Source: a virus (Duplodnaviria; Caudoviricetes). Taken from it: a stretch of DNA of 62,107 nucleotides. Shown piece after piece: positions 4,550-48,766 of this stretch (position 1 is the stretch's first letter; the number at the start of each line of letters is the position of its first letter). The position numbers and the translations under genes are program-made. The stretch spans positions 1 to 62,107 of the IMG/VR virus record IMGVR_UViG_3300029267_003445; one strand, given 5' to 3'. The notes beneath the pieces were generated by a model. That model did not search any database, was not told where the DNA came from, and saw nothing but the letters and a program-made list of their open reading frames with translations.

Positions 4550-6493
4550 ATGTCTCCTTTCGCAGGATACCCGGATTTTGACGCGTGTGTTGCTGACCAG
4601 AAACAGAAGGGCAAGAGTGACACGGCTGCCCGAAAGATTTGTGGGGCGCTTCAGGCGCGTGTGGAAAAGAGTGCGGAGGACGAGGAGGTACTAACGACCG
4701 GCCCCCTTGCGGACGCGCTGCGGGAGAGTGCCGTGCTCGACGGGGGCGAGGTGGTCATTTCGGAGGCGTTTATCACAGACGAGAATAAAGTGGTCAGCGC
4801 GGACGACGTGGTGCGGGCGGTGATGAAAAAATCGATGCGGGGCATCCCCTCGGATCGCGTTCATAAGGAGGCGAAGAATCTGGGGACGCTGGACGTTGCC
4901 AAAATGGTTGAAGGGTCTACGCAGAGCAAGGCGGAAATCGGTCGAAACGATTTGAAGCTGCACGAGGCGGAGTTTGTGGAGCCCCCGTACCCGCCTGAGT
5001 TGCTGAGCATGTTTTTGGAGGTGGACGAGACACATTATCGGGCATGCAAGGTCAAGGCAACGGACGCGGTAGGTCGCCCGTACACGCTGGAGCCTTCGGA
5101 GGCACCGGACGGCGGGGAATATGATCCGGCAAAGGCGGACGACAAGACGCGGAAGCTCGTGGCGGCTGAGACAAAAGTGATTCGGACATTCATTGAGGAG
5201 TGTAATGGAATCATCGGGTTTGAGGGGACATTAGCACGGGCTGCGATGGATAACGAGGCTGTCGGGTGGGCGGCGCTTGAGGTAATCCGAAATAAGAACA
5301 TGGTCGTGACGAAATTGGCACATATCCCCGCGGTACGCGTGCGCACGTTGCGGGGGTTTGTGGGGTGGGTTGAACTGGTCGGGCCGGAGAGGTACATCTA
5401 CTATCAGCCATTCGGTCACAAGGTACTGAGCAATCGAGACGCTACTCCCGGGCACAAAGACTATTACAATCCGCGGGAGGACGGGCCGTTGGATGCGAAG
5501 AAGTTGACGTGGAACATGGTGGACCGGGAAACAGGCAAGCCGACGCGGAATTTTGGTCGGGCTGCGAATGAAATTGTTTGGGTGCCCCGCCATCATGCGA
5601 ATACGATTTACTATGGTATGACGGACGCACTCCCGGCGATGGGGGACCTGCTGACAAAGGTGCACATCCGAGATTATATCCTACAATATTTTGAACATAA
5701 TACGGTTCCCCGGTACGTCGTGGTGATTGAGGGTGCTAAGCTGTCTGACTCAGTGAAGAAATTGATTTCGGAATATTTCCACACGCATGTGAAAGGCCGC
5801 GCGCACAAGACGCTGGTTGTGCCCATCCCGTCGATGAAGGGGGAGGTGAAGGTTCGGTTTGAAAAACTGGACGCGGAGCTAGAAACGTCTTCATACATGG
5901 CGACGCGGGAAACGAGCAGGGATGGAATTTTGACGGCGCACGGGGTCAGTCCCGCCATCTTGGGTATTGCTGAGAGCAGTGAGCTAGGGAGCGGCAAGGG
6001 GTTGTCGCAAGCTGAAATATACAAGGACCGTATCGTGGAGCCTTCTCAGAGGAGGTGGGCTGACGCGCTCAACCGACTATTTCGGTTGGGGCTTGGCGTG
6101 CGGGTTGTTTCGTTGAAGTTCGATCCCCTGGATATTCGGGATAGAAATATGGAGATGCTGACTCACGTTGGATACGTGGAGCATGCTATTGAAACGCTCA
6201 ACGAGGCGAGACGGGCTCTCGGCTTGGACCCGTATGAGGAGGGCGGGGACCGCGCGTTTATGCTGACCTCTTCGGGACCCATTTTTGTGGACGAGCTTAC
6301 GAAGGAGGCCAGTGCAGAGCGGCAGTCGTTGGAGGATGAAATTGACACGTTGCGTCGGGAGCAGGCGCAGTCCCGGTTGAACAGTATGCGACCCGCGGAT
6401 GCAAGTGGTAAACTACCGAAGACGCCCAAGACGCCCGCCAATCCGGTGACGCAGAAACAGACCCCCGGAAAGAAACAAGGGAAACAACAATGA
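4550..6493 (+). CDS. Portal protein with N- and C-terminal extensions
   Basis: Follows terL. IYYG.TD, YFEHNTVP, ILTAHGVSPAILG and TLNEARRALGLDP are portal-like. GAGGGAG RBS before ATG4550. Confidence 0.9.
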   Translation: MSPFAGYPDFDACVADQKQKGKSDTAARKICGALQARVEKSAEDEEVLTTGPLADALRESAVLDGGEVVISEAFITDENKVVSADDVVRAVMKKSMRGIPSDRVHKEAKNLGTLDVAKMVEGSTQSKAEIGRNDLKLHEAEFVEPPYPPELLSMFLEVDETHYRACKVKATDAVGRPYTLEPSEAPDGGEYDPAKADDKTRKLVAAETKVIRTFIEECNGIIGFEGTLARAAMDNEAVGWAALEVIRNKNMVVTKLAHIPAVRVRTLRGFVGWVELVGPERYIYYQPFGHKVLSNRDATPGHKDYYNPREDGPLDAKKLTWNMVDRETGKPTRNFGRAANEIVWVPRHHANTIYYGMTDALPAMGDLLTKVHIRDYILQYFEHNTVPRYVVVIEGAKLSDSVKKLISEYFHTHVKGRAHKTLVVPIPSMKGEVKVRFEKLDAELETSSYMATRETSRDGILTAHGVSPAILGIAESSELGSGKGLSQAEIYKDRIVEPSQRRWADALNRLFRLGLGVRVVSLKFDPLDIRDRNMEMLTHVGYVEHAIETLNEARRALGLDPYEEGGDRAFMLTSSGPIFVDELTKEASAERQSLEDEIDTLRREQAQSRLNSMRPADASGKLPKTPKTPANPVTQKQTPGKKQGKQQ

Positions 6494-7074
6494 AAGATAC
6501 AAGAAGAGAAGTAGTGGACACGGTGTTGCGTCTGGACACGTTGAAGGAGTTGCCCGGCAACGCAAATTTGCACAACGCAAGAAACAAGGCGGCAATCCGG
6601 TTCTCGCTCGAAAAGTTCGGACAGGTGGAGCCGCTCGTGGTGCAAAAGAGCACGCAACACGTTATCGGCGGCAACGGGCGTCTCGCGGTGATGCGCGAAA
6701 TGGGGTGGATCGACGCGGAGTGCAAGATTATCGACGTAGACGACGCCACGGCGCAGGCGCTAGCGCTGGCTCTAAATCGGACTAGTGAGCTGTCCGTGTG
6801 GGATAACGAACTGCTGAGCGAGACTATGTTTTCCTTGCGGGACGAGGGGTGGGACCTGACCGCGCTTGGCTGGGAGGAGCATGAGTACGAGCCTCTTTTG
6901 GCGGCGGAATGGTCCCCGCCCGAGATTGAGCCGTTGCCGGAGGCGGTGTCGGCCCCGACGAAACACGTGGTAGAGTTCACCCCGGAGCAATGGGCTGTCG
7001 TGGATTCCTATTTGCCGGGCACGGGCTCGGACGCGGAGCGAATCGTTGCCTTCTTTGGGGAGGGCGATAAGTGA
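6490..7074 (+). CDS. ParB/Srx N-terminal domain protein
   Basis: PGNANLH, SLEKFGQVEPLVV, VIGGNGRL, LALNRTSELSVWD. ATGA overlap with portal. Confidence 0.85.
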   Translation: MKDTRREVVDTVLRLDTLKELPGNANLHNARNKAAIRFSLEKFGQVEPLVVQKSTQHVIGGNGRLAVMREMGWIDAECKIIDVDDATAQALALALNRTSELSVWDNELLSETMFSLRDEGWDLTALGWEEHEYEPLLAAEWSPPEIEPLPEAVSAPTKHVVEFTPEQWAVVDSYLPGTGSDAERIVAFFGEGDK

Positions 7075-7802
7075 CCTCCATTCGTTTAGCGTACGGCGGA
7101 CCGCCCGAGGCGCTGGCGAAGGGGTTGACAGGAACACCTGAGCCCTCTTTGCTGGTGTCCTACGTTTATCTGGACATGTTTTTGAAGCAGAGGCATCGTT
7201 ATAATTTTCGTGATTGGGTGATGGACTCGGGTGCGTTCTCTGCGTTCAATAGTGGTACGGAAATCAAATTGCAAGACTATATTGACGTATGCAAGAAGTT
7301 GAAGGCCACGGACCCGAAGCTCACCCATGTTTTCAGCTTGGACGTGATTGGGGATTGGCGGGGCACGCTAAAGAATACGGAGGAGATGTGGCGACAGGGG
7401 GTGGAGGCGATTCCCACGTTTCATTTCGGAACCCCGGAAAAAGAGCTGTATAGTTTAGCGCGCGACTACCCTCGGATTGCGCTCGGCGGCATTTCTGGAA
7501 AGCACGGCAAGGAGTGGTATCGTTTTGTCGGGCAATGTTTCGCCCGGGTCTGGCCGAAGTGGATACACGGGTTCGGCGTTGGGGGAGAAAAGGAAGTCTT
7601 TTTCGTGCCCTGGTCTTCGGTGGATGCGACGAATTGGGAGTTGGGGCCGTGCAAGTTCGGCCGTTGGAAAACGTTTGGCGGGTTGTCGGTGCGCGGGGGC
7701 AAGCACAATCTTCGCGTGGAGGTGGAGTGGTGGTTGGACTTTGAGCGACGTGCTCAATACCGATGGCGTCGGGAAATGGAAACCGTGAGGAAACTGAAAT
7801 GA
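7071..7802 (+). CDS. dpdA: DpdA-like DNA 7-deazaguanine transglycosylase (TGT fold)
   Basis: MDSGAFSA, SLDVIGD, IPTFH, IALGG, IHGFG, SVDATNW. Short, lacks the tRNA-TGT Zn motif, and sits beside que genes. Confidence 0.85.
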   Translation: MTSIRLAYGGPPEALAKGLTGTPEPSLLVSYVYLDMFLKQRHRYNFRDWVMDSGAFSAFNSGTEIKLQDYIDVCKKLKATDPKLTHVFSLDVIGDWRGTLKNTEEMWRQGVEAIPTFHFGTPEKELYSLARDYPRIALGGISGKHGKEWYRFVGQCFARVWPKWIHGFGVGGEKEVFFVPWSSVDATNWELGPCKFGRWKTFGGLSVRGGKHNLRVEVEWWLDFERRAQYRWRREMETVRKLK

Positions 7803-8695
7803 CGATTGACCTAAATACACTCCCTTCGGGGGAGCGGTACGCGGATGAATACGGTGCGTGGCTGGAGGTCTGGCGGCAGATCGCTGAGGAACCCGGTGTT
7901 GTGGTGAAGAGCCCTCCGCATAGCTGGATTCCACTGGCGCGTTATTTGGGAGCAACCGTGCGGGGGAGCTTTGCGCATTTTTTGCAAGACTCGTACTATC
8001 GCAACGCGAACGAGATGTACGACCATGCGAAGGCCTACGGCCGTCAGCGGGAGTATGTGGAATCGGTGTGCACGGCTCGGCCGGAGCTGGTTGACGCGTT
8101 GTGGAAGAGCGACGTGCAATGGCAGACGGTTGATCGGGACCATACGTGGCAGCGGGAGTTCGTGTTGACGAACTATAACGGGTATTATCGACCCGAGATT
8201 TTGGAGTATATGAAAAAGCTAGAGGAGTACGTACCTCCCGCACGCGTGCGAAATTGCGTTGTGACCAGTTGTTCCGCGGATAAGCCATATCCGGCGGACG
8301 TGCATCGGGCGGTACTCGATATTCTGCCGGACGAGTCGTGGCATCTTGTTATCGCCACGGGCGTGCTCGGTGTCGTGCCTCAAGAACTCTGGGGTGTGAT
8401 GCCGTTGTACGATGCGGGCATCCCAAATAATTGGAGATGCTTTCAAAAGTGGTGTCGGTACGCGCAGCGGATAAAGTACGATAGGATTGTTGTGTACGCA
8501 GATTTTTATGCTCCCGCGGTGCACGCGGCGCTCTCCTCTGTACTGGCGGATACTGCGGTGTCCTATCCTTTACCCGTGGGCGGGCGGGCGGATTATTTGG
8601 ACCTTGCGGACGAGAGGTGGCTAAATCATTTACGGCGCGCGTTGGAGTGTAGTCCTGCGGATGCCGGTTCTTTTAAGTCGGGGATACTATTATGA
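7799..8695 (+). CDS. ArcS/DUF5591-like protein with an unassigned ~140-aa N-terminus
   Basis: [11 protein letters not shown]...H and [19 protein letters not shown] match the ArcS core (PCS.xKPY; LGxVPxEL..YD). ATGA-coupled to dpdA and queC. Confidence 0.72.
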
Positions 8696-9348
8696 AAATT
8701 GTGCTCATCTATTCCGGGGGGCTGGACTCCACGGTGTTGCTCTATTCCTATCTAGCTCAGGAGGCCGAAGTGAAGGCGCTGAGCATCAATTACGGGCAGC
8801 GACATCAGAAGGAGTTGCGCGCCGCGGGTCGCATTTGCCGGGACAACGGAGTGCCCTTTTCCATCGTGGACATTGGCGCTGTTGGCGCGTTATTGCAGTC
8901 AAGTTTGACGGATAGAAAAATAGATGTTCCCGACGGGCACTACGCGGAAGAGTCTATGAAACAGACTGTTGTGCCTAACAGAAATATGATTATGCTTTCG
9001 CTTGCAATCGGGCACGCGTGTTCTTTGAAGTACGATGCGGTCGCATACGCGGCGCACGCTGGGGATCACACAATATACCCCGATTGTCGCCCCGCATTCG
9101 TGGACGCGATGGCAGAGGCGGCGCGGTTGTGTGATTGGCACCCCGTTGAAATCGCCCGCCCGTTTATCACCAAGACAAAGGCAGACATTGCGGCGCTTGG
9201 ACATGCGCTGGACGTGCCCTTTGCGGATACGTGGTCTTGCTATAAAGGCGGGGAGCGTCATTGCGGCACGTGCGGCACGTGCGTGGAACGACGAGAGGCG
9301 TTTGAGTTGGCAAAAGTACCAGACCCAACGGAGTATGAAAATGAATAG
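8692..9348 (+). CDS. queC: 7-cyano-7-deazaguanine synthase
   Basis: SGGLDST, YGQRH, VPNRN, YPDCRP, TWSCY...HCGTCGTC. Confidence 0.98.
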
Positions 9349-9766
9349 CGTGACAGTGACAAAGCGTTTTGAGTTTGACGCGGCTCATCGATTGTATCAG
9401 CACGAGGGGGCGTGTCGGCACGTGCACGGGCATCACTACGTCGTGGAGGTAGAGGTGGCGGGGCCGTCGTTGAATTATCTTGGCATGCTCATTGATTTTG
9501 GGGAGTTGAAGCAGCGGGTGGGCGATTGGATACAAGAGCACTGGGACCACGCGACGCTTCTCAATAATGCGGACACGGTATTATTTGAGGCTTTGGAAGA
9601 GATGAATAGTACGCTTTATCTGTTTGATGGGAACCCCACGGCCGAGAAGATGGCGGTTGAGCTGTTTACACAAGTACGCGAATTGTTGAAACATACTCCC
9701 GTGGTCCCCCGGCGGGTGCGCGTGTGGGAGACACCGGACAGTTTCGCGGAGTATCGGGAGGGATAA
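9341..9766 (+). CDS. queD: 6-carboxytetrahydropterin synthase
   Basis: [32 protein letters not shown]. Start at 9335 or 9341. Confidence 0.97.
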
Positions 9767-9768
9767 TA

Positions 9769-10374
9769 GTGTCTAAAAAGTACGCCATCAGCGAGATTTT
9801 CTATTCCCTTCAGGGGGAGGGCGTACGCGCGGGAACTGCCTCGGTGTTTGTACGCTTCTCTGGATGCAATTTGCGATGTACCGTTGCGACGGAGGGGTTT
9901 GATTGTGATACGGACCACTCATGCAACCATGTCATGTCGGGGCGGGAAATTGCGGCCGAGTGCGCGAAATACATGTCGGAAGAGACGCCTCGGTGGGTGG
10001 TGTTCACGGGCGGGGAGCCTGCGATGCAGTTGGACGCGGACCTTGTTCATATCTTCCGCGCCCGGGGGTGGCATCTTGCCGTGGAAACGAATGGCTCGCT
10101 TCCGTTGCCGGAGGGGTTGGATTGGATCACCGTGAGCCCGCGGCGGCAAGCGATTCAAGTGCTCTCGGGGGTGAGTGAGGTGAAGTGCGTTGTGGGGGCG
10201 GAAGGGACACTGCCGGATGTTGGTAGATTGCGCCCGGGGTATCGTCTAATCAGTCCCGCATTCAACGGCCCGGACCCGGACCCGGCTGCGATTGCTCGAT
10301 GCGTTCAGTTAGTAAAGGAGAATCCAAAATGGCGGCTGTCAATACAGCTCCACAAGTTTCTTCACATCCAGTGA
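9769..10374 (+). CDS. queE: 7-carboxy-7-deazaguanine synthase (radical SAM)
   Basis: EIFYSLQGEG, FVRFSGCNLRC...CDT, TGGEP, ETNG, SIQLHK. Confidence 0.97.
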   Translation: MSKKYAISEIFYSLQGEGVRAGTASVFVRFSGCNLRCTVATEGFDCDTDHSCNHVMSGREIAAECAKYMSEETPRWVVFTGGEPAMQLDADLVHIFRARGWHLAVETNGSLPLPEGLDWITVSPRRQAIQVLSGVSEVKCVVGAEGTLPDVGRLRPGYRLISPAFNGPDPDPAAIARCVQLVKENPKWRLSIQLHKFLHIQ

Positions 10375-11252
10375 GGAGAATTACGTGGGCGGAGTTTACT
10401 AGAGACTGCGGTGGGCTGGTAGAGGAGATTCGCCGCGCCGGTTTGCGTGTTTCTGGTGTTTTTGGCGTACCGAGTGGGGGTTGTCACGTGGCGCAAATAG
10501 TTGCGCATGCTTTGGAGGTGCCCGTACTGGACGAGCCTGAGCGGGATTGTGTGGTAGTGGACGATTTGATTGATAGCGGGAAGACGATACAATCCTACTC
10601 GGCGCGCGGGCACATGTGCTTGACCTTATATCGCAAGCCGCATAGTCCGCCGGGTTATGGTATCCGTACGCTTTCGGGGTGGCTTCAGTTTCCATGGGAG
10701 CATTCGGGACGCCCGGAGGACGCGGTGACTCGATTGTTGGAGTTTATTGGGGAGGACCCCACCCGGGACGGTTTGATAAAGACGCCCGAACGTGTGTGCC
10801 GCGCGTTCGCGGAAATGACGGCCGGTTATGCGCAGACTGCGAAGGACATATTGGGTACGGTTTTCGAGACGGAGTATGACCAAGTTATCATGCTTCGGGA
10901 CATCCAGTTTTCAAGTCTGTGTGAGCATCACATGCTACCGTTCAGCGGGCTTGCGACGGTTGCCTATCTGCCGGGGACGGGTAAAGTGGTCGGTATTTCT
11001 AAACTCGCTCGGCTCGTGCAGATGCATGCGAAGCGGTTGCAGATACAGGAGCGTATGACTTCGGACATCGCGGATGACGTAATGAATATTTTGTCTGCGA
11101 AGGGCGCGGCCGTGATTATACGTGCAAAACATCTTTGCATGGGATGCCGGGGCATCAAAGACCCCGTTGCGAGCATGGTGACAAGTGAAATGCGTGGGCT
11201 GTTTCGGGAAGACGCAACGGCACGCGCTGAGCTTTTTTCTCTTGAGAAGTAA
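10371..11252 (+). CDS. folE: Fusion of a Gpt-like type I phosphoribosyltransferase and GTP cyclohydrolase I
   Basis: N-terminus ITW, GVPSGG, VVVDDLIDSGKT, WLQFPWE. C-terminus GEDPTRDGLIKTPERV, SLCEHHMLPF, SKLAR, RLQIQER, HLCM. One uninterrupted frame; GTGA overlap with queE. Confidence 0.93.
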   Translation: MRRITWAEFTRDCGGLVEEIRRAGLRVSGVFGVPSGGCHVAQIVAHALEVPVLDEPERDCVVVDDLIDSGKTIQSYSARGHMCLTLYRKPHSPPGYGIRTLSGWLQFPWEHSGRPEDAVTRLLEFIGEDPTRDGLIKTPERVCRAFAEMTAGYAQTAKDILGTVFETEYDQVIMLRDIQFSSLCEHHMLPFSGLATVAYLPGTGKVVGISKLARLVQMHAKRLQIQERMTSDIADDVMNILSAKGAAVIIRAKHLCMGCRGIKDPVASMVTSEMRGLFREDATARAELFSLEK

Positions 11253-11253
11253 T

Positions 11254-13131
11254 GTGGTCGCAATCCAAGACAAGCTAGAGCGTTCTTTCGCCCATGACGT
11301 GACGCGTTTTCTGCGGGCGCGTTTTGAGGAGATGGCGACGAAGTTGCGCCCCTATTTGCGGCGTGTGCGGCGGGATCGCCTCTCCGTTGTGGCGGGGTAT
11401 TCTCGCGGAGTAGATAGGCGGCGGGCTGCGGACGCTTACCTTTTCGATCTGTTGGCACCGCTTGCAGATACTTTGATTAGCGACGAGGCGCAAACGGTCT
11501 TTGAGTTGCTTATTTTTCGGCATTTGCGGGCGGCATACGAGGCCGGGGCGGTGGATGCGCTTCACCGCATGGGATTTGAGGCGTCCGTTGTCGATAATCG
11601 CCGCCGAACGGTTGCGAAAGCGGCTGCGGACCCCATTATTTTCGAGCTGTCGGACCCCGAAATTATTGCCGCACTTGAGGAGCGTGCTCGTATTGTAGGG
11701 GCGGGCCTCACTCCGGCAATGTTAGGCGACGCGCGGCGGCTTGTTCGGGATAAAATGGTGTTCGGGGACCTCGGTGCACACCAGACAGCGACGCAGATTG
11801 CGGCCGGGGCTGGGATTCCGCACTGGAGAGGCTTGAAAATCGCTAGAACGGAGGCCGGACAGGCGTTTAACGGCGCGACTTTCGAGCAGTATTATCGGTC
11901 CGGGGTAAGGATGAAGGCGTGGCACACCGTTGGGGATAACCGTGTGCGGGACGATCACACTATGAACGCGGCGGAGGGCTATATTCCAATCGGAAACGCC
12001 TTTGGAAATGGTGAAATGTATCCCGGGAGCGGCTCTATCAATTGCCGGTGCGCTTTGCTGGCAGATATGCGGGACCCGAAGCTGGTTTTAACCCCGTGGT
12101 CGGGTAACGCAGGGGCGTATCTCGGCCCGACGTTGCCGATAGCCCCGCTGCCCGCGCCGACAGCGAGCGGCATTTCTCCTCAAATGCTTGCGCGCTTGCG
12201 GGCGGTTTCGTCGCCCGTGTCTAAGCCGAAGTTTCTCGGGCCTCTCGGTAAGAAGGTGGGAACAATACAATCGCAAATTGATTTGATTAGGGATAAGCTG
12301 AAGGAGCACGCCGACGATGTGGCATATACTTCGCATCTAAAACGGCGGCTCACTAAGCTGGAAAAACGATTGGTAGATGTGCAACAGGGCACTCTGCCGG
12401 GCAAGGTCAAAGCGATTGAGCTTATCGAAATCAAAGGTAAGAGTCCCGTTTCCCCCGAGTTCAAGGCGAGAGTCGTGAAGCATTTAGACTCGTTGCCGCA
12501 GAAGGACTTGGCACGCATAAAGAAAGCCGGGATCAAAGTACGCCTCGGTCATCACATGGATGAGGCGTTGCCGCGGGTGAAGGGTATGACACCCCGGGGC
12601 TATCCAGCGGGGACTAAGTTTAACGAAATCGAGGGGTTGTTTTCGCCTACGGAGAATCGGATTGTCTTGACGGAGTATAAACAGGATTGGGCGTCTACGC
12701 GGCTCACGAAGGCATATCTAAGCCCCGGTCGGCTCTCTACCACGGTACGACATGAGGTAGGTCATGCAATAGATAAGGCGCTGACAATACGGCCGGAGGG
12801 CGGCGGTAGAATTATTGCTTCGCAGCAAGCGAAGTATTCGGCGCAGTATCGTCAGGAGTTCGTCAAAATCATAAAGGAGACTGGATCGGAGCTGACGGAG
12901 ACGGGGTATACGTTGCACGGCTCTGCGCGTATAATTTCTTATGAGCTTCAGCCAAATCCATCCGCGCTTAAGTGGGGCGGTTCGGGAGCGACAGACGCCG
13001 GTGCGTCTGAGATGTTTGCGGAGTTATATGCGCATCTCCGCGGTGGCGCAGCGAATCGAAGTGGGGGGCCTATTTACGCGGGCCGTTTTTCCAAGACGTT
13101 GGCAGTGGTGAAGGACATGATAGGGGGTTAA
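11254..13131 (+). CDS. MuF/SPP1 gp7-like minor head protein fused to a C-terminal HExxH metallopeptidase
   Basis: IARTE, KAWHTVGDNRVRDDH, PG...INCRC (MuF); HEVGHAID and EMFAE (zincin). Start approximate (GTG11254). Confidence 0.88.
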   Translation: MVAIQDKLERSFAHDVTRFLRARFEEMATKLRPYLRRVRRDRLSVVAGYSRGVDRRRAADAYLFDLLAPLADTLISDEAQTVFELLIFRHLRAAYEAGAVDALHRMGFEASVVDNRRRTVAKAAADPIIFELSDPEIIAALEERARIVGAGLTPAMLGDARRLVRDKMVFGDLGAHQTATQIAAGAGIPHWRGLKIARTEAGQAFNGATFEQYYRSGVRMKAWHTVGDNRVRDDHTMNAAEGYIPIGNAFGNGEMYPGSGSINCRCALLADMRDPKLVLTPWSGNAGAYLGPTLPIAPLPAPTASGISPQMLARLRAVSSPVSKPKFLGPLGKKVGTIQSQIDLIRDKLKEHADDVAYTSHLKRRLTKLEKRLVDVQQGTLPGKVKAIELIEIKGKSPVSPEFKARVVKHLDSLPQKDLARIKKAGIKVRLGHHMDEALPRVKGMTPRGYPAGTKFNEIEGLFSPTENRIVLTEYKQDWASTRLTKAYLSPGRLSTTVRHEVGHAIDKALTIRPEGGGRIIASQQAKYSAQYRQEFVKIIKETGSELTETGYTLHGSARIISYELQPNPSALKWGGSGATDAGASEMFAELYAHLRGGAANRSGGPIYAGRFSKTLAVVKDMIGG

Positions 13132-16310: not shown

Positions 16311-17474
16311 GTGGACGGATTTGAAGTGTTGGACGGGCTTGAAACTGCGGAGCCCTCGCTTGTTTTGCCCGAGGATTGGGAGGGGGCGCGGATATGCCTC
16401 CGGTTTTCTGGGGGCGTCGGGGACGTTGTGGTTGCGATAGGCGGCACGGCCGCGGCACTTGCTGCGAAGCAGTGTCATATCACGGCTGCGTCTTTGCCTC
16501 ATCAAATGCCTCTGCTGCGGCAAATGGTGGGGGTAGACGCGGCATGTTCGTCCACGGCTCTGAACGACCCAGCAAATCGGCTGAAATACGATGTACTATT
16601 GGAGTTTTCGCAGGTCTTTAACCGTTCCCGCACGTTGCGGCCGGGGAGCTATTACGGGCACGTCACAAAGAGGGTAGGTATCCCCGTTTCTCCCGGGCGG
16701 TTTCTGTTTGCCGGGTCGGTGCCCCCGGTTCCGAAGTTGGCGGTTGTCCACACGGGTTCGTCTAACCCTAATCGGAGATGGGCAGAGGCGAAATGGCGGG
16801 CGGTCATCACTGGTTTGTCGGCACACGGATACGCGGTGCGCTGTCTGGGCACGAAAGACGAGTGGGGAATACACGCGCCCGGGGACAATATTGAAAAGCT
16901 AAGTGAGCTGTCTGACGATCTGTTGTGGCAAGCGGAGCAGTGCGCGGCGGCGGAGTTATTTGTGGGTACGGACTCGGGGTTCGCTCATATTTGTGGCGTG
17001 TTGGGGGTACCGGGGGCGGTTGTGTTTACGAATACAGAACCGGCGGACGTGATTGGGGAGTACCCGTCATTGAAGGCCGTTCACGCCTATGATAGACTAG
17101 GAGTAAGACCGACCCGAAGCTTGCGCAAGGACGATCCTGACGCGATTACGTGTGGGGCGGCAATAGAACCCGAAGATGTGTTTGAGGTGTTGCGGTTGTC
17201 GAAGCCCGAGGTGGAGCCCGTGGCGGAGCAACCGATTACACGCCCCCGCATTCTCGTTCCCTCGGGGCGAGGCACGGCGGCGATACGAACAATTGAACGA
17301 ATGTGCGATGTGAGCTACGTTGGTCGAGAGGCCGAGTTTGATGCGGTTGTTTTTGTCTACAATAAAGGGACCCGGGCCGTTCGTACGGCGAGCCCGCCGC
17401 GCCTTTTGTTGGCATCTTGCACGGACCCGGATCAGGCGATGCGAGCGTTGCGTGAAATTCTAGCGGCGAGGTAA
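16311..17474 (+). CDS. Glycosyltransferase family 9 (heptosyltransferase-like)
   Basis: GGVGDVV, VHTGSSNPNRRW, FVGTDSGFAHICGVLGVP. Confidence 0.88.
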   Translation: MDGFEVLDGLETAEPSLVLPEDWEGARICLRFSGGVGDVVVAIGGTAAALAAKQCHITAASLPHQMPLLRQMVGVDAACSSTALNDPANRLKYDVLLEFSQVFNRSRTLRPGSYYGHVTKRVGIPVSPGRFLFAGSVPPVPKLAVVHTGSSNPNRRWAEAKWRAVITGLSAHGYAVRCLGTKDEWGIHAPGDNIEKLSELSDDLLWQAEQCAAAELFVGTDSGFAHICGVLGVPGAVVFTNTEPADVIGEYPSLKAVHAYDRLGVRPTRSLRKDDPDAITCGAAIEPEDVFEVLRLSKPEVEPVAEQPITRPRILVPSGRGTAAIRTIERMCDVSYVGREAEFDAVVFVYNKGTRAVRTASPPRLLLASCTDPDQAMRALREILAAR

Positions 17475-35127: not shown

Positions 35128-35403
35128 ATGTTTGTTAGTTTTGACTCGTTTACACGGACGCTCAACATGTTGCGGGCCGTGGTGTGTGGGGAGACGGTCA
35201 GTGAGGATCGGATGAAGGCGCGGCTCGTTATTTGTTCTACGTGCCCCCACGTCACGGAGTTGGGGGGCTCTATGAGTTGCGGGATTTGTGGGTGTAAGCT
35301 GAAGGGAGACAAGTCGCTCATTAATCTTGCAAAATACGAGGAGACGGCTGCGTACGGGTGCAAGGCTCCCGGGGGGTCAAAATGGAAAAAGATTGGAGTA
35401 TGA
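35128..35403 (+). CDS. Small Cys-rich protein (DUF6171-like)
   Basis: RLVICSTCPH...CGICGC...C...KW. Confidence 0.65.
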   Translation: MFVSFDSFTRTLNMLRAVVCGETVSEDRMKARLVICSTCPHVTELGGSMSCGICGCKLKGDKSLINLAKYEETAAYGCKAPGGSKWKKIGV

Positions 35404-35404
35404 C

Positions 35405-35785
35405 ATGAGAATTGCCGTTGACTTTGACGGAACCATAGTGGAGCACAAATTTCCTGACATAGGCAAGCCCGTCCCGGGAGCGTTTGAGTGGATGCGCCGG
35501 TGGCAGGAGCACGGGGCCACCCTTATTCTCTGGACGATGCGGAGCGGTCTTTACTTAGATGCCGCCGTGGAATATTGTACCCGCGCGGGAATCCAGTTTG
35601 ATGCCGTCAACGAAGGCGTGGGGGACAGGGCATGGACGGAGAGCCCGAAAGCGTACGCAAACATCTATATTGATGACGCTGCGTTTGGGTGCCCTTTGAT
35701 CGAGTCCCAGGAAATGGGTGCCCGCAAGATGGTGGATTGGGACGTTGTGGGACCCTCGGTTTTGGGGCTATTAAAAGGAGTATGA
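35405..35785 (+). CDS. HAD-superfamily phosphatase (capless, BT0820-like)
   Basis: IAVDFDGTI, ILWTMR, K..ANIYIDD. Confidence 0.9.
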   Translation: MRIAVDFDGTIVEHKFPDIGKPVPGAFEWMRRWQEHGATLILWTMRSGLYLDAAVEYCTRAGIQFDAVNEGVGDRAWTESPKAYANIYIDDAAFGCPLIESQEMGARKMVDWDVVGPSVLGLLKGV

Positions 35786-35786
35786 C

Positions 35787-37610
35787 ATGGCGAAAGTATT
35801 GTGGCTCTCGGAGTCTATGCAGATGCCGTCCGGGTTCGGGCAACAAACGAAACTCGTTTGCGAAGGATTGGCAAAGCAGGGGCATGATGTGACGGTAATA
35901 TGTCAGGCCGGGCCGAAGTTCAAGGGTAAGCTTCCGCCGAACTTGCGGGAGTGGCGTTTTGATTGTATCTATGACGTTGCACTTGTGGAGCGATTGGCGG
36001 AGAAGCTTCGCCCGGACGTAGTGGTGATTTTCTGGTGCCTGACCATCAATAACATGATGCTTCAAGTGCCGACCGTACCCGCGAACGCGGAATTGTGCGT
36101 GTGGATGCCGTGGGAAGGAACGTCCTTGCCCGAGGGGCACGAGGCGTTGAGTTGCGTGCCCCCTGGTCGGTTCGTGCACTTGTCTCAGTATTCGCAGAAG
36201 CTCTGGTCGCCGTCGGTGGAGTCGAATGTCATAATACCGCACGGGGTTGCGACGGATGAGTTTGAGTATATGTCACATAAACGGCGATCACAGGCGCGGA
36301 AAGAACTGAGAGCGGTGTGGGGACGCCGGTTGCGGCACTCTTTTTCGGAGAGCGATATAATCTTGTTGAACGTGGATCGTAACACCCATCACAAGATGTG
36401 GGACGCCACCTTTGACATCGCCCGCCGTGTAAAGCGGGAGGGACATGACGTGGTGCTAGTGGCACACACGCGCCGCGGGGCCGGGGCAACGATTGAGGGG
36501 CGTCGGTCAGGTGAGATTGGGTATGATTTACCCAAGATGGAGAAACTGTACGGCTTGGAGGGCGACGTATGCTACACCGATTTTGATTGGGGCAACGGCA
36601 TGACCCGCCGCGACCTCGCCGGGCTATACCACCTCTGTGATTTTCGCATCTCGACTTCGCTCGGGGAGGGTTTTGGCATTCCCACGGCGGAGGCGGCGGC
36701 GTGCGGTACCCCGCAGATTTTGAATGCCACCACCACCCTCCCCGAAGTGGTGGGCGACCCCGACTCCCCCTGGTTGGTGCCTCCGAGTACCCTAATCTCG
36801 CGGTCTAACGACCTTTGGGGCATGCCGGACGCGGCGGCAATGGCGCAGAGGCTCTTAGAGCTGGTAAATGCTCCGTCTCGCGTCGCTACGGCGGCTCAAA
36901 AGGCCAAGAGGCATTGTTGCGCCGAGTTTGCCGAGCCTCGCGTACAATCGCTCTGGGGGGCTTATATTCAAGAGCTGGCGAGCGGACGCGCCATCGGTAG
37001 GGCCGGGTTGGAGGGCAGCAAGAAAGGGTCCGACCTTTGGTACGCACATCGGCGGGGGTGGGGGTACCGGCAGAAGGCGCTCGCTACGTTGGCGGCGGCA
37101 GTGGAGACGGTGAAGCGGCTTGTGGGGCCGGGGACCGTGTTGGAGGTGGGGAGTTTCGACGGTGTGTTTTTGGAAATGGCGTTGGAGCACAATATCGACA
37201 TCACGGGCATCGAGCCTGATCCCCGGTCCCGGGAGCGTTGCACGGAGCGGGCGCGCACGTTTCTCGAATCTGCGTCAATCGGATATAATGATGTTTGGCC
37301 CGAGGCCGCTTGTGTTGTGGCGACGGATATTTGGGATTTGGTTACCTCTGCCGCGACTCAAAACGTGCTTGACCATATCGCAGCCTACGAGTGGGCGGTG
37401 TTGCGGTTTCAGCGGAGCGGCGTGTGGGGGCGGGGCCGGGTTTCGGCGGAGTTGTGTCGGGCGCGTTTGAAGGACCGCGGCATGACTCGTCGGGAAGACT
37501 TGGAGCGTATGATACGAAAGAATTTTGCCGAGCATTTAGAGCACGAAATTTGGATGCGCGGTTCCGATACATCTAATATCCCCGCTGGGGTACGCACGGG
37601 AGGAAAGTAA
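35787..37610 (+). CDS. GT4 glycosyltransferase fused to a SAM-methyltransferase-like domain
   Basis: PSGFG, IPHGV, VDRNTHHK, STSLGEGFGIPTAEAAACGTP; C-terminal VLEVGSFDG, GIEP. Confidence 0.85.
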   Translation: MAKVLWLSESMQMPSGFGQQTKLVCEGLAKQGHDVTVICQAGPKFKGKLPPNLREWRFDCIYDVALVERLAEKLRPDVVVIFWCLTINNMMLQVPTVPANAELCVWMPWEGTSLPEGHEALSCVPPGRFVHLSQYSQKLWSPSVESNVIIPHGVATDEFEYMSHKRRSQARKELRAVWGRRLRHSFSESDIILLNVDRNTHHKMWDATFDIARRVKREGHDVVLVAHTRRGAGATIEGRRSGEIGYDLPKMEKLYGLEGDVCYTDFDWGNGMTRRDLAGLYHLCDFRISTSLGEGFGIPTAEAAACGTPQILNATTTLPEVVGDPDSPWLVPPSTLISRSNDLWGMPDAAAMAQRLLELVNAPSRVATAAQKAKRHCCAEFAEPRVQSLWGAYIQELASGRAIGRAGLEGSKKGSDLWYAHRRGWGYRQKALATLAAAVETVKRLVGPGTVLEVGSFDGVFLEMALEHNIDITGIEPDPRSRERCTERARTFLESASIGYNDVWPEAACVVATDIWDLVTSAATQNVLDHIAAYEWAVLRFQRSGVWGRGRVSAELCRARLKDRGMTRREDLERMIRKNFAEHLEHEIWMRGSDTSNIPAGVRTGGK

Positions 37611-42290: not shown

Positions 42291-43123
42291 ACCGGGACCT
42301 TGCAAAAGTATTTCATAGCGAGCAGGCCAAATCCCTATCGCCTACCTCTATCCTCGTGTATTGCCTGATGCTCACAGATGTATTTGCGCAATACTCCCCC
42401 GGTGCACGTGCGTGCAAGGGCTCGGGAATGCTTATCTCCGATATTGGGCGGCGGGAGCTGGAGATGCGGTGTGGCGGCGGGGAAGGGACCAGGAGGTTAC
42501 CGTATGCCCTCCGCGCATTGATTGAGGCGGGGTGGATAAAAGAGGTTTCCGGGGGTCGGTATTCTTTGGGGGAGACGAAAGACGGGTTGCAATGGTATGC
42601 TCTGGGGGAGAAGAAAACACCGCGGACTGCCGGAGCCGAGAAGGTACTTGCGGCGGCTCGTCGGGGAGCGGAGAGGCTCGCTAAGGAGGCGAAAGAAGCG
42701 CGGAAGCGGCGAGCGGCGTGGCCGCGGCGGCGAGCGGCGCGGGAGGAGTTGAAAACCCCGGCCCTTTCCGTGTTTCTGAGTCATCGTTTCCGGGAGCTGT
42801 TCGGGGCAACGTTCAAAACAACTCCCAGCGACCTACCGACTCGCAAGATGCAGAATATTTACATGCATCAATTCTCAAAATACTTGGATGAAAACGAGGA
42901 GGAGTGCGAGGCGTTCCTTGTGTGGTTCTTCACGCGATGGGACGACATCTGTACGGCATGGGGGATAGTCGGGCATCGCCCCCGGATGCGATTGCTTGCG
43001 AGTAAAAGGATGGTTCAGCAATTGCAAAAGTGGCGAACGTCTGGTTTTAAGGCGCGGGAGTCCGTTGTGGCTGATCGGGCGGATGCGGAAAAGATTACGG
43101 CGGCAAAGGACAGGGGGTGGTGA
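42287..43123 (+). CDS. Putative replication initiator (winged-helix N-terminus)
   Basis: LSPTSILVY...ALRALIEAGWIKE; upstream of DnaC-like and DnaB genes. Confidence 0.55.
   Translation: MNRDLAKVFHSEQAKSLSPTSILVYCLMLTDVFAQYSPGARACKGSGMLISDIGRRELEMRCGGGEGTRRLPYALRALIEAGWIKEVSGGRYSLGETKDGLQWYALGEKKTPRTAGAEKVLAAARRGAERLAKEAKEARKRRAAWPRRRAAREELKTPALSVFLSHRFRELFGATFKTTPSDLPTRKMQNIYMHQFSKYLDENEEECEAFLVWFFTRWDDICTAWGIVGHRPRMRLLASKRMVQQLQKWRTSGFKARESVVADRADAEKITAAKDRGW
42403..42416. promoter_or_regulatory. Palindromic box copy 6 (intragenic)
   Basis: TGCACGTGCGTGCA. Confidence 0.75.
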
Positions 43124-43851
43124 TGGCGGTATGGTATGCATCCCCTTATTTTTGTGAGGAGGCGCTAGTCCGGGCGCGGCATCTGTATCTAGGTGAGGCG
43201 GTGTCTGTTTTCGTGTGGGGCGAGAGTGACGTGACCACGCAAGGGGACCCAAATCCTTACCATTTTCCCGAGAGCGAAAAAGAAGCTAACGTGCTGACGT
43301 TGCGGGTGCCCCAAATCAGCGAGGACCCGCGGGAGCAGGAGGACCTGACATTTCAAACGTGGGCGACGTATGTTGCCGCGCAGTGTCAGGATGAGGACTT
43401 GATAATTTTATCGGACGCGGACGAGCTGATTCGCCGGGAGGCAATAACGCAAGCGAACGAGCAGTGCGTGACTTATTTGACCCTCCAACAATATTATTTT
43501 TGTTACCATCCCTCCTATCTACGGCAAGTGAGTTGGAGGTGCGCTAAAGTCTTTCGGGGCCGTTTTTTAAAATCGCTCCTCCGGCAGGGGGTTCTTCTGC
43601 ACGTGTTTCGACACCTGAAATACGAACACCCGTTGCGGGATGCGGGGTGGCACTTGACAAATTTCGGCGGCTCGGAAATGGTGGCGGTAAAGCATCGCAG
43701 TTTTCGGCACGCGAAGGAAAACCGGCTGTCCTATGAGGAGGGGATGCGCACGATGAAGACCCCGGCGGGGCATCCGCTTGTTCGTGTAAATCCGCTGGAT
43801 TATTTCCCCTCGAACCTATTAGACCTGTTGGAGGTGGGGTATGCTCACTGA
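43117..43851 (+). CDS. GT17 (MGAT3-like) glycosyltransferase
   Basis: ESDVTTQG, DLIILSDADELI, AGWHLTNFGG. Confidence 0.75.
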   Translation: MVMAVWYASPYFCEEALVRARHLYLGEAVSVFVWGESDVTTQGDPNPYHFPESEKEANVLTLRVPQISEDPREQEDLTFQTWATYVAAQCQDEDLIILSDADELIRREAITQANEQCVTYLTLQQYYFCYHPSYLRQVSWRCAKVFRGRFLKSLLRQGVLLHVFRHLKYEHPLRDAGWHLTNFGGSEMVAVKHRSFRHAKENRLSYEEGMRTMKTPAGHPLVRVNPLDYFPSNLLDLLEVGYAH

Positions 43852-47872: not shown

Positions 47873-47896
47873 TACATCAAATGTCTCCTGATGTGG

Positions 47897-47936
47897 GGCG
47901 GTGTGCGTCGTATGGGGCGCACATCGCCTTTCTTTT
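47897..47936 (+). terminator. Intrinsic terminator
   Basis: GGCGGTGTGCGTC/GGCGCACATCGCC stem followed by TTTCTTTT. Confidence 0.75.
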
Positions 47937-47937
47937 C

Positions 47938-47951
47938 TGCAAGCGCGTGCA
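47938..47951. promoter_or_regulatory. Palindromic box, one-mismatch copy
   Basis: TGCAAGCGCGTGCA between the terminator and the MTase RBS. Confidence 0.6.
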
Positions 47952-47965
47952 ACCCGGAGGATACC

Positions 47966-48766
47966 ATGTCTACGACGGTAGTGGTGGGTGATTTTAGAGA
48001 GAAGAAAGATCGGCTCGCTGATGGAGTGGCGCAGCTCGTATTCACGGACCCGCCCTTTAATATTGGGCACCCGTATGTCGGGTTCAGCGATGTTATGGAG
48101 GGGCGGGAATACCGTACTCTTATTTCAAACATCGTCCAGGAGGCGTGGCGATGTCTCACCCCGGGCGGGCGTTTTTGTATGCACGTGCCTGACGAGGTGG
48201 TGTTGCCCGTGTTGGAGGACGCACGTTTTTGGGGGATGTTGCCATCGGACTGGATTGTGTGGCACTATCGTTTCGGGCAGTGTGGAAAAACAAAATACAT
48301 CAACAGCAAGTGCCACCTCTTAACGTTCTTGAAACCGGGCGGTGTCCCCGTGTGGAACCCGGACGATGTGCTAGTGGCAAGTGACCGGGCCTCCACGTAT
48401 GAAGACCCGCGAACAAAAGAGACGGCGACCCCCGGCAAGCGCGTTCCGTTGGACGTTTGGGGGATTCCCAGCGACGGGCCGTATTGGGGCCGGGTTCAAG
48501 GTAACTCGAAGGAGCGTCGCAGCGTGAAAAACGGGGCTCTCGTCGATCACCCCAATCAGTTGCCCGAGGTGTACTTAGAGCGAGTGATACGGGGTTGGAC
48601 AAACCCCGGCGATTTGGTTGTGGACTTTTGCGGCGGTTCGGGAACGACGGCCGTGGTTGCCAAGGCTCTCGGGCGTGCATCTTGTACGTTTGAGATTTCT
48701 TCTGATAATGCGGCAAGTATTATGCAACGATTGGAAAAAGGAGCGGTCCGTGTCCCTAGTTACTGA
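47966..48766 (+). CDS. N4-cytosine/N6-adenine DNA methyltransferase (beta class)
   Basis: FTDPPFN before HPNQLP and VVDFCGGSGTT; GGAGG RBS. Confidence 0.93.
   Translation: MSTTVVVGDFREKKDRLADGVAQLVFTDPPFNIGHPYVGFSDVMEGREYRTLISNIVQEAWRCLTPGGRFCMHVPDEVVLPVLEDARFWGMLPSDWIVWHYRFGQCGKTKYINSKCHLLTFLKPGGVPVWNPDDVLVASDRASTYEDPRTKETATPGKRVPLDVWGIPSDGPYWGRVQGNSKERRSVKNGALVDHPNQLPEVYLERVIRGWTNPGDLVVDFCGGSGTTAVVAKALGRASCTFEISSDNAASIMQRLEKGAVRVPSY

Follow-up and report, generated by a model that had tools for sequence, protein, structure and literature searches.

A truncated, stand-alone archaeosine synthase homologue of the phage ArcS2 kind in a viral 7-deazaguanine gene cluster

What use has a virus for the catalytic core of archaeosine synthase, ArcS, when RaSEA, the partner on which ArcS depends in some archaea, is not to be seen beside it? 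The question is raised by a gene on the plus strand at 7799-8695 of the linear IMG/VR virus record IMGVR_UViG_3300029267_003445 (62,107 bases; this whole stretch is the window referred to below, and its CheckV completeness of ~60% means that the absence of a gene holds for the window and not for the whole phage). The gene lies in a 7-deazaguanine cluster, between those for a DpdA-type DNA guanine transglycosylase and for QueC, the synthase of preQ0 (7-cyano-7-deazaguanine). Its product is a truncated, stand-alone archaeosine synthase homologue of the phage ArcS2 kind, from a separate, uncharacterised subfamily of proteins of ~290 aa, and it would serve to make 2'-deoxyarchaeosine (dG+) in phage DNA. 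Phages gain protection from restriction through 7-deazaguanine modification of their DNA, and of the whole pathway it is the ArcS2 step that is least understood: one enzyme has been tested, the yields were tiny, and one virus has an unexpected product.

The ArcS core and what precedes it

The open reading frame (ORF) extends from 7763 to 8695; translation from the in-frame ATG at 7799, which GAGGA precedes by 7 nt, yields a product of 298 aa. An identical 298-aa protein is recorded in the protein collection (P0002), encoded on a contig of 98,020 bases. Pfam DUF5591 (PF17884) matches residues 135-233 with 33.9 bits against a gathering cut-off of 26 (E 3.3e-8; 35.3 bits in a six-frame search of the record). 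Profile-profile alignment (hhalign) of the 46-member family with seven ArcS-type proteins, four of which pass the cut-off of the NF040592 ArcS model, pairs residues 77-287 with ArcS 249-465 at a probability of 99.6% (E 7.5e-25). An earlier note on this DNA, made from the sequence alone, had read the protein as an ArcS-core homologue in a 7-deazaguanine cluster, and that much is borne out. A canonical ArcS it is not: the NF040592 equivalog scores 62.2 bits where its cut-off is 440, over profile positions 223-361 of 575. What the protein has in common with phage ArcS2 is a C1 core lacking C2 and PUA domains (the alignment ends at about ArcS 465 and no PUA domain is matched), encoded by a virus together with DpdA and preQ0 genes.

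The subfamily is well populated. A word-indexed search returned 95 relatives, nearly all of 280-310 aa and aligned over >90% of the target; an exhaustive profile search returned 504 representatives at E<=1e-3, 196 at E<=1e-10 and 101 at E<=1e-30, the last being clusters at 50% identity. Twenty-six columns are invariant in the 46-sequence family alignment, many of them N-terminal (Y14, Y18, P40, W43, R84, E88, R94-P95-E96). No PHROGs family was matched by the target, and the only cultured carriers among 50,697 phage records are the Vibrio phages vB_VcorM_GR11A and GR7B (~40% identity), whose proteins are both annotated as hypothetical; the main text of PMC10516641, the article in which ArcS2 is named, mentions neither GR11A nor GR7B nor the vB_VcorM designation.

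The full-length AlphaFold2 (AF2) model (mean predicted local distance difference test score, pLDDT, 95.1) places the core on 2q07_A, the structure of AF0587 (VIA-align Z 14.3, root-mean-square deviation (rmsd) 2.7, 132 residues aligned; Foldseek E 4.6e-4), and a profile match to the same entry among PDB sequences has E 2e-5. Thirty-two positions are invariant across the seven ArcS-type proteins in the aligned region: the target keeps 21 of them, the ArcS2 of phage nt-1 keeps 13, and the target's family keeps 17 at >=90%. Those kept by the target include R84, E88, P95, D105, R131, C158, A160, K162, P163, Y164 and H169 and, further along, T187, G191, P194, P202, Y204, D205 and W212. Its departures from ArcS include P165, G188, V189, W198, P209, N210 and Y233, all invariant in its own family. 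Two of these, W198 and P209, it has in common with nt-1 ArcS2, while canonical ArcS has an invariant E and T there, which hints that they are virus-type features. (Among BFVD structures the target model also weakly matches the DUF6884 proteins of two phages, Mycobacterium phage Mendokysei (E 6.3e-3) and Halobacterium phage ChaoS9 (E 0.26); DUF6884 and the DUF5591 core may be distantly related.)

What, then, are the residues ahead of the core? The earlier note counted ~140 of them as unassigned and supposed an unknown domain that sets specificity. As far as Pfam is concerned the first part stands (134 residues precede DUF5591); beyond Pfam it does not, because the alignment to the NCBIfam ArcS model begins as early as residue 81 (81-212 to its positions 223-361) and the profile-profile alignment at residue 77. 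The ArcTGT model likewise aligns residues 81-206 to its 321-437, and full-length proteins (599-621 aa) returned by the exhaustive search match the query from about residues 63-77 to 238 at their own residues ~235-430. For residues 1-80 the alignment to ArcS 1-255 is weak but collinear (8-70 with ArcS 115-199, probability 31%); it pairs the family's W..PLL.YLG with AIL.YLG.D.FD of ArcS. Modelled alone, residues 1-134 give an AF2 pLDDT of 87.6. Residues 1-118 folded alone have as their best VIA-align match 1iq8_A, the archaeal tRNA-guanine transglycosylase (TGT) ArcTGT (Z 5.0, rmsd 3.0 A, 102 aligned, chain residues 192-380), the runner-up among 48,161 chains compared reaching only Z 3.2; the part matched is the C-terminal portion of the TGT barrel. 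A Z of 5.0 is modest in absolute terms, yet the match spans the whole domain, is clear of all others and is collinear with the sequence evidence.

Homology from residue 77 onward, together with the 1iq8 match, thus makes this region a vestige of the ArcS/TGT-like domain and not an added module, and the unknown specificity domain of the earlier note finds no support. The Cys-rich stretch that lies between these segments in canonical ArcS is missing from the target (by comparison with the P0216 sequence). Nor is what remains a TGT: the (beta/alpha)8 barrel, catalytic Asp and Zn site of that superfamily are reduced to a partial segment, with T at the position of the ArcS-invariant D173. Across the 46 members of the family R84, E88, P95 and R131 do not vary and D105 is present in 45/46, and all five are invariant in ArcS as well; with so many of the family's invariant columns falling within it, the N-terminal region is an integral and constrained part of the protein. 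On our reading the target is ArcS from ~115 to ~465, minus the Zn stretch, C2 and PUA. Its N-terminus, as a remnant of the TGT barrel, shows how viral enzymes were carved from ArcS.

The cluster and its relatives

The genes of the window lie nearly all on the plus strand, and ORF scans find among them terminase, portal, MuF-like, capsid and tail genes and a replication module. The deazaguanine genes form a tight block between the portal gene and the MuF-like gene:

6490..7074, plus strand: ParB-like protein, directly 5' of DpdA (phrog_620, 4.4e-31)
7071..7802, plus strand: DpdA1-type DNA guanine transglycosylase, 243 aa (phrog_887, 2e-28)
7799..8200, plus strand: ArcS2-like protein, residues 1-134, vestigial C-terminal segment of the TGT-like (Nt) domain of ArcS, no Cys-rich Zn stretch (hhalign, AF2 model, VIA-align)
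8201..8695, plus strand: ArcS2-like protein, residues 135-298, C1/DUF5591 catalytic core with C158-x3-K162-P163-Y164 ... H169 (PF17884, 2q07_A, conservation counts)
8692..9348, plus strand: QueC, 218 aa, the plain form without a glutamine amidotransferase (GATase) domain (PF06508, 218.7 bits; TIGR00364, 199.2 bits against a cut-off of 150.3)
9341..9766, plus strand: QueD, 6-carboxytetrahydropterin synthase (PF01242, 118.7 bits, on the C-terminal 136 residues of ORF 9035-9766)
9724..10374, plus strand: QueE, 7-carboxy-7-deazaguanine synthase (TIGR04508, 154 bits, under its cut-off of 240; PF04055 and Fer4_12 matches; phrog_2076, 2.9e-28)
10299..11252, plus strand: FolE, GTP cyclohydrolase I, with an N-terminal extension of ~139 residues (PF01227, 229.8 bits, residues 140-315)

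The ATG of the ArcS2-like gene overlaps the DpdA stop as ATGA and its own stop overlaps the QueC start, again as ATGA, at 8692-8695, so that DpdA, ArcS2-like protein and QueC read as one translationally coupled unit. QueD is taken to begin at 9341 (or 9335), where an in-frame ATG follows GGAG, and the true start of QueE may lie a few codons downstream of 9724. The FolE extension has a weak, sub-threshold phosphoribosyltransferase-like match at residues 82-98; FolE is of comparable length (302-314 aa) in two of the related loci discussed below (numbered with an L; here L007 and L010), and the extension seems to be conserved. The ParB-DpdA order recurs in loci L023 and L029 (tblastn ParB matches beside DpdA) and, by annotation, in Mycobacterium phage Quesadilla. 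Compared by megablast with the phage collection, the cluster (6490-11252) found no match.

The 243-aa protein upstream matches, by tblastn, 228 phage records, mostly annotated as queuine tRNA-ribosyltransferase or DpdA, among them 9g-like Nonagviruses, Pseudomonas phages of the Queuovirinae type and Rosebush-like mycobacteriophages. The DpdA of the 9g-like phage JenP1, to which it is 31% identical (E 1e-21), is longer, at 317 aa; against PDB sequences the window's protein finds no match at E<=1. D52, S53, G54, D91, H166, D185 and W189 are invariant in an alignment of it with nine relatives (10 sequences), and by its sequence the gene is taken for that of a complete, short DpdA1-type enzyme. 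Could the two adjacent genes be the halves of one split ArcS or DpdA? These residues of DpdA's own rule that out, as does the finding of both genes apart and in other orders in related loci. Complex prediction for DpdA with the ArcS2-like protein (score 0.00, mark 0.32) speaks neither for nor against binding.

A relative of the target is encoded in 25 viral loci. QueC stands beside the homologue in 24/25, at least one preQ0-pathway gene is present in 25/25, and DpdA can be detected with the window's DpdA in 12/25; phrog_887 confirms DpdA in L007, L010, L011, L015, L016, L017 and L018.

Which partners might complete the reaction? Within the window there is no QueF (ORF scans and a PF14489 search over six frames) and, since QueC carries no GATase domain by Pfam, no Gat-QueC; QueE is the one radical S-adenosylmethionine (SAM) protein among the ORFs scanned (16 + 43 by Pfam, 6 + 51 by NCBIfam), and the RaSEA partnership of canonical ArcS is not seen there. 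On these points, the lack of QueF and Gat-QueC and of any radical SAM partner, the earlier note had read the window correctly. (A technical point: a six-frame PF04055 search of the record found nothing, QueE included, and is too insensitive; ORF-by-ORF hmmscan was relied on instead.) A Pfam scan of the same kind was carried to 20 non-redundant loci, with the near-duplicates L008, L019, L020, L022 and L026 set aside, and took in 182 ORFs within ~4 kb of the homologue (180 of the 215 listed plus two added by hand; the 35 omitted are short and mostly on the minus strand). Neither QueF nor GATase occurs among these 182 ORFs, and the radical SAM matches by Pfam amount to four QueE-sized proteins and one KamA-family protein (in L024). 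No RaSEA-type partner having appeared near the homologue in the 20 loci, its absence is the rule for this family.

The KamA-family gene, a radical SAM aminomutase, lies ~5-6 kb downstream of the ArcS2-like gene in two large phages, GR11A (L001, 14856-16476) and L024 (15037-16170), where TIGR00238 gives 236 and 280 bits, above its cut-off of 199; the gene after it in GR11A is that of a GNAT acetyltransferase. A possible lysine link of the KamA-family protein to ArcS chemistry is intriguing. As a stand-in for RaSEA it was nonetheless set aside: it is of the aminomutase family, occurs in 1/20 non-redundant metagenomic loci and GR11A only, and is absent from the window, and it is not treated as a partner.

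Other arrangements around the homologues deserve mention. One sub-group has the order QueC, Methyltransf_11 methyltransferase, ArcS2-like gene and divergent QueC paralogue (PF06508, 78-86 bits; L013 4825-7833, L030 3925-6903, L031 1218-4411), and a QueC paralogue directly after or near the ArcS2-like gene is found also in L024, L027 and Vibrio phage GR11A; this arrangement may point to yet another deazaguanine derivative. The ArcS2-like gene often has beside it a second PTPS/QueD-like gene of divergent sequence (L007 11557-12060, L014 10870-11367, L017 2513-2959, L023 4967-5407), and in nt-1 (L006 7487-8419) a 310-aa PTPS-like protein directly precedes ArcS2, stop and start overlapping. The FolE of L015 (13335-14672) is interrupted by an intein, with a Pfam Intein_splicing domain between two GTP_cyclohydroI halves.

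Elsewhere in the window, a small ORF at 269-514 resembles the carbon storage regulator CsrA (NF002469, 70.7 bits, just below the cut-off of 73). Sugar-related genes are scattered: a GT9 heptosyltransferase-like gene directly after the capsid gene, a BT0820-type HAD phosphatase, a GT4 and a GT17-like glycosyltransferase (16311-17474; 35327-35785; 35787-37610; 43117-43851); virion or host surface glycans, or DNA, are possible targets. The MuF-like head protein (11185-13131) has a weakly peptidase-like C-terminal region (Pfam ATLF, 22.2 bits, below the cut-off of 27.4; phrog_4415, peptidase) that is probably a metalloprotease-like cargo domain. The replication module includes an N6/N4 DNA methyltransferase (47891-48766; PF01555, 98.9 bits), so that this phage may have a second kind of DNA modification.

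Proposed amination of preQ0 without RaSEA, and its rivals

With homology, architecture and context established here, the form of the substrate, the nitrogen donor and the product are what we infer. FolE, QueD, QueE and QueC would take GTP to preQ0 (the pathway is established; the family assignments come from this analysis), and DpdA, to judge by its family, would swap guanine in phage DNA for preQ0. The ArcS2-like enzyme would then join a nitrogen nucleophile to preQ0 at its nitrile carbon, in a conserved pocket of C158, K162-P163-Y164 and H169. The nucleophile would most likely be ammonia or amide-derived NH3, the substrate most likely DNA-borne preQ0 (dPreQ0) and not the free base, and the product, by analogy with nt-1 ArcS2, the formamidine dG+, made with no RaSEA partner; phage DNA would in this way be shielded from host restriction. 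To the whole of this chain, RaSEA-independent amination of DNA-borne dPreQ0 to dG+ by a phage ArcS2-type enzyme, we give somewhat better than even credence, and dG+, which the earlier note also put forward, stays the leading product prediction.

Published work provides the analogy. In E. coli, nt-1 DpdA2 alone gives dPreQ0, and DpdA2 with the viral core-only ArcS homologue, named ArcS2, gives dG+ (PMC10516641, Table 3); lack of RaSEA, which the earlier note had taken as a sign of novelty, is on this showing nothing of the kind. Virion DNA of nt-1 contains dG+, dPreQ0 and the amide dADG (PMC6884629). An archaeal precedent exists as well: the ArcS of M. jannaschii is stated to make archaeosine (G+) directly from NH4+, Asn or Gln (PMC11298593). 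The ArcS of T. kodakarensis accepts the preQ0 nucleoside and 5'-nucleotide and rejects the free base (PMC11298593, section 7), a preference that supports the action of ArcS2 after preQ0 has been inserted. In the literature searched on ArcS2, and in that on 7-deazaguanine, DpdA and phage from 2024 on, no later study of the mechanism of ArcS2 came up.

Several observations weigh against RaSEA-independent dG+ formation. The canonical C1 motif, PC-X3-KPY-X2-S-X2-H (PMC10516641), is incomplete here: C158, K162, P163, Y164 and H169 are kept, but the leading P is S (it is P in 39/46 family members), both ArcS-invariant Ser are replaced (by P165, which is family-invariant, and in this protein A166), and the His stands one residue nearer KPY. 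The target, a predicted enzyme like the rest of the ~290-aa subfamily, is only 21% identical to nt-1 ArcS2, and database-scale tblastn from the target did not reach that protein at E<=10. The record being ~60% complete, a partner gene could lie beyond the window. In the nt-1 experiment itself, DpdA2 alone left 926-1607 dPreQ0 per 10^6 nt in E. coli plasmid DNA; with ArcS2 added, dPreQ0 fell to 0-11, yet only 4-7 dG+ per 10^6 nt appeared (PMC10516641). Some 1000 dPreQ0 per 10^6 nt are lost in that test for 4-7 dG+ gained, which leaves most of the deazaguanine unaccounted for, and dG+ may therefore be a minor product. The virus STSV2, with DpdA and an ArcS-core gene, carries the acid dCDG and not dG+ (PMC10516641). 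Finally, the ArcS enzymes of three archaea other than M. jannaschii transfer lysine, need RaSEA and make no use of NH4+, Asn or Gln, and that of T. kodakarensis, when free of RaSEA, is inactive (PMC11298593).

If ammonia is not the donor, might lysine or another amine be? The enzyme would then carry out the first half-reaction of euryarchaeal ArcS and leave a stable amidine adduct of preQ0, uncleaved because RaSEA is wanting. The greater ArcS-likeness of the target family (21/32 invariant positions against 13/32 in nt-1 ArcS2, K162 included, which is R in nt-1), the failure to find RaSEA in the window or near the homologue in 20 related loci, and the near-disappearance of dPreQ0 with little dG+ in the nt-1 test, which fits a product outside the reported quantification table (dPreQ0 and dG+), all point this way. 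Such a product, a bulky, charged, amino-acid- or amine-conjugated 7-deazaguanine in phage DNA, would be a previously undescribed hypermodification, and it would account for the loss of dPreQ0 on co-expression of ArcS2 and DpdA. Against it, nt-1 ArcS2 made some dG+ in E. coli, which lacks RaSEA; T. kodakarensis ArcS transfers no lysine when free of RaSEA; the literature found reports no adduct of this type in any phage DNA; and the family-invariant P165, G188, V189, W198, P209, N210 and Y233 imply a pocket not identical to that of the lysine-using enzymes. We consider an adduct unlikely, though far from negligible, and the new base that the earlier note had thought possible is to that extent a minority reading.

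Hydration or hydrolysis of the nitrile to the amide (dADG) or acid (dCDG), a DpdC-like rather than an amidinotransferase-like activity, appears quite improbable. That phage ArcS might be an amidohydrolase was suggested by Hutinet et al. in view of the dADG also present in nt-1 DNA (PMC6884629), and the dCDG of STSV2 and the loss from the target of the ArcS-invariant Ser pair (S339, S341) can be cited in its favour; the authors themselves, however, allow that dADG may come from spontaneous oxidation of dPreQ0 (PMC6884629) and concluded that the dCDG of STSV2 requires further, unidentified STSV2 proteins (PMC10516641). Moreover, the sole direct test of a phage ArcS2 yielded dG+ (PMC10516641), and the C/KPY/H core that the family has in common with amidine-forming ArcS is invariant in it or nearly so. 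There is, lastly, the thought that no phage DNA is modified at all: that the protein acts on host tRNA or free nucleotides, is a non-catalytic partner of DpdA, or is a decaying remnant. It has lost PUA, C2 and most of the Nt domain, and T. kodakarensis ArcS can use a nucleoside 5'-monophosphate (PMC11298593). But a family of 101 clusters at E<=1e-30, with 26 columns invariant over 46 sequences, residues of the catalytic motif among them, is large and constrained; its gene is always found within phage preQ0/DpdA clusters; and without PUA the protein has no recognisable tRNA-binding module. This last alternative is hardly to be credited.

Comparison with known systems

Gat-QueC (phage 9g) and QueF-L (Crenarchaeota) have the same predicted step, preQ0 to G+, on unrelated folds, and neither is present in the window; these two and ArcS are treated as interchangeable in archaea and phages (PMC10516641, PMC6884629). 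The only solved structure that clearly matches the target is that of AF0587 of Archaeoglobus fulgidus (2q07), a split-type DUF5591 + PUA protein. It differs in having PUA after the core and no N-terminal TGT-like remnant, and only residues 135-285 of the target model align with it.

Canonical euryarchaeal ArcS (archaeosine synthase alpha subunit, NF040592, ~575-620 aa) has the C-x3-KPY...H core in common with the target, and addition to the preQ0 nitrile is expected of both. Unlike the target, it has the first ~110 residues of the Nt domain, the Cys-rich Zn stretch, C2 and PUA, and its substrate is position 15 of tRNA, while that of the target is presumed to be DNA.

The nearest parallel is nt-1 ArcS2 (VPFG_00169, 226 aa; Cui, Hutinet et al. 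2023, PMC10516641), likewise a DUF5591 core that stands alone, encoded together with DpdA in a deazaguanine cluster of a phage, with no RaSEA. The two are homologous: nt-1 ArcS2 aligns to residues 99-292 of the target (21% identity, pairwise BLASTP E 4e-7), and its model, R9TEI9, is the second-best viral structural match (Foldseek against BFVD, E 7.8e-6, probability 1.00). The target has ~98 additional N-terminal residues, keeps the K of KPY, which is R in nt-1 ArcS2, along with H169, R131 and T187, which the latter lacks, and is paired with a DpdA1-type transglycosylase where nt-1 ArcS2 is paired with a DpdA2-type enzyme. As the alignments have it, then, the target belongs to a sister subfamily of nt-1 ArcS2, longer and closer to ArcS. 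One can think of this well-defined and widespread group, which lacks annotation in PHROGs and in its two cultured phage carriers, as the better-conserved candidate for asking how a core-only ArcS works without RaSEA, which nitrogen donor it uses and what its true end product is: closer than nt-1 ArcS2 to the canonical enzyme, and paired with the more efficient type of DpdA.

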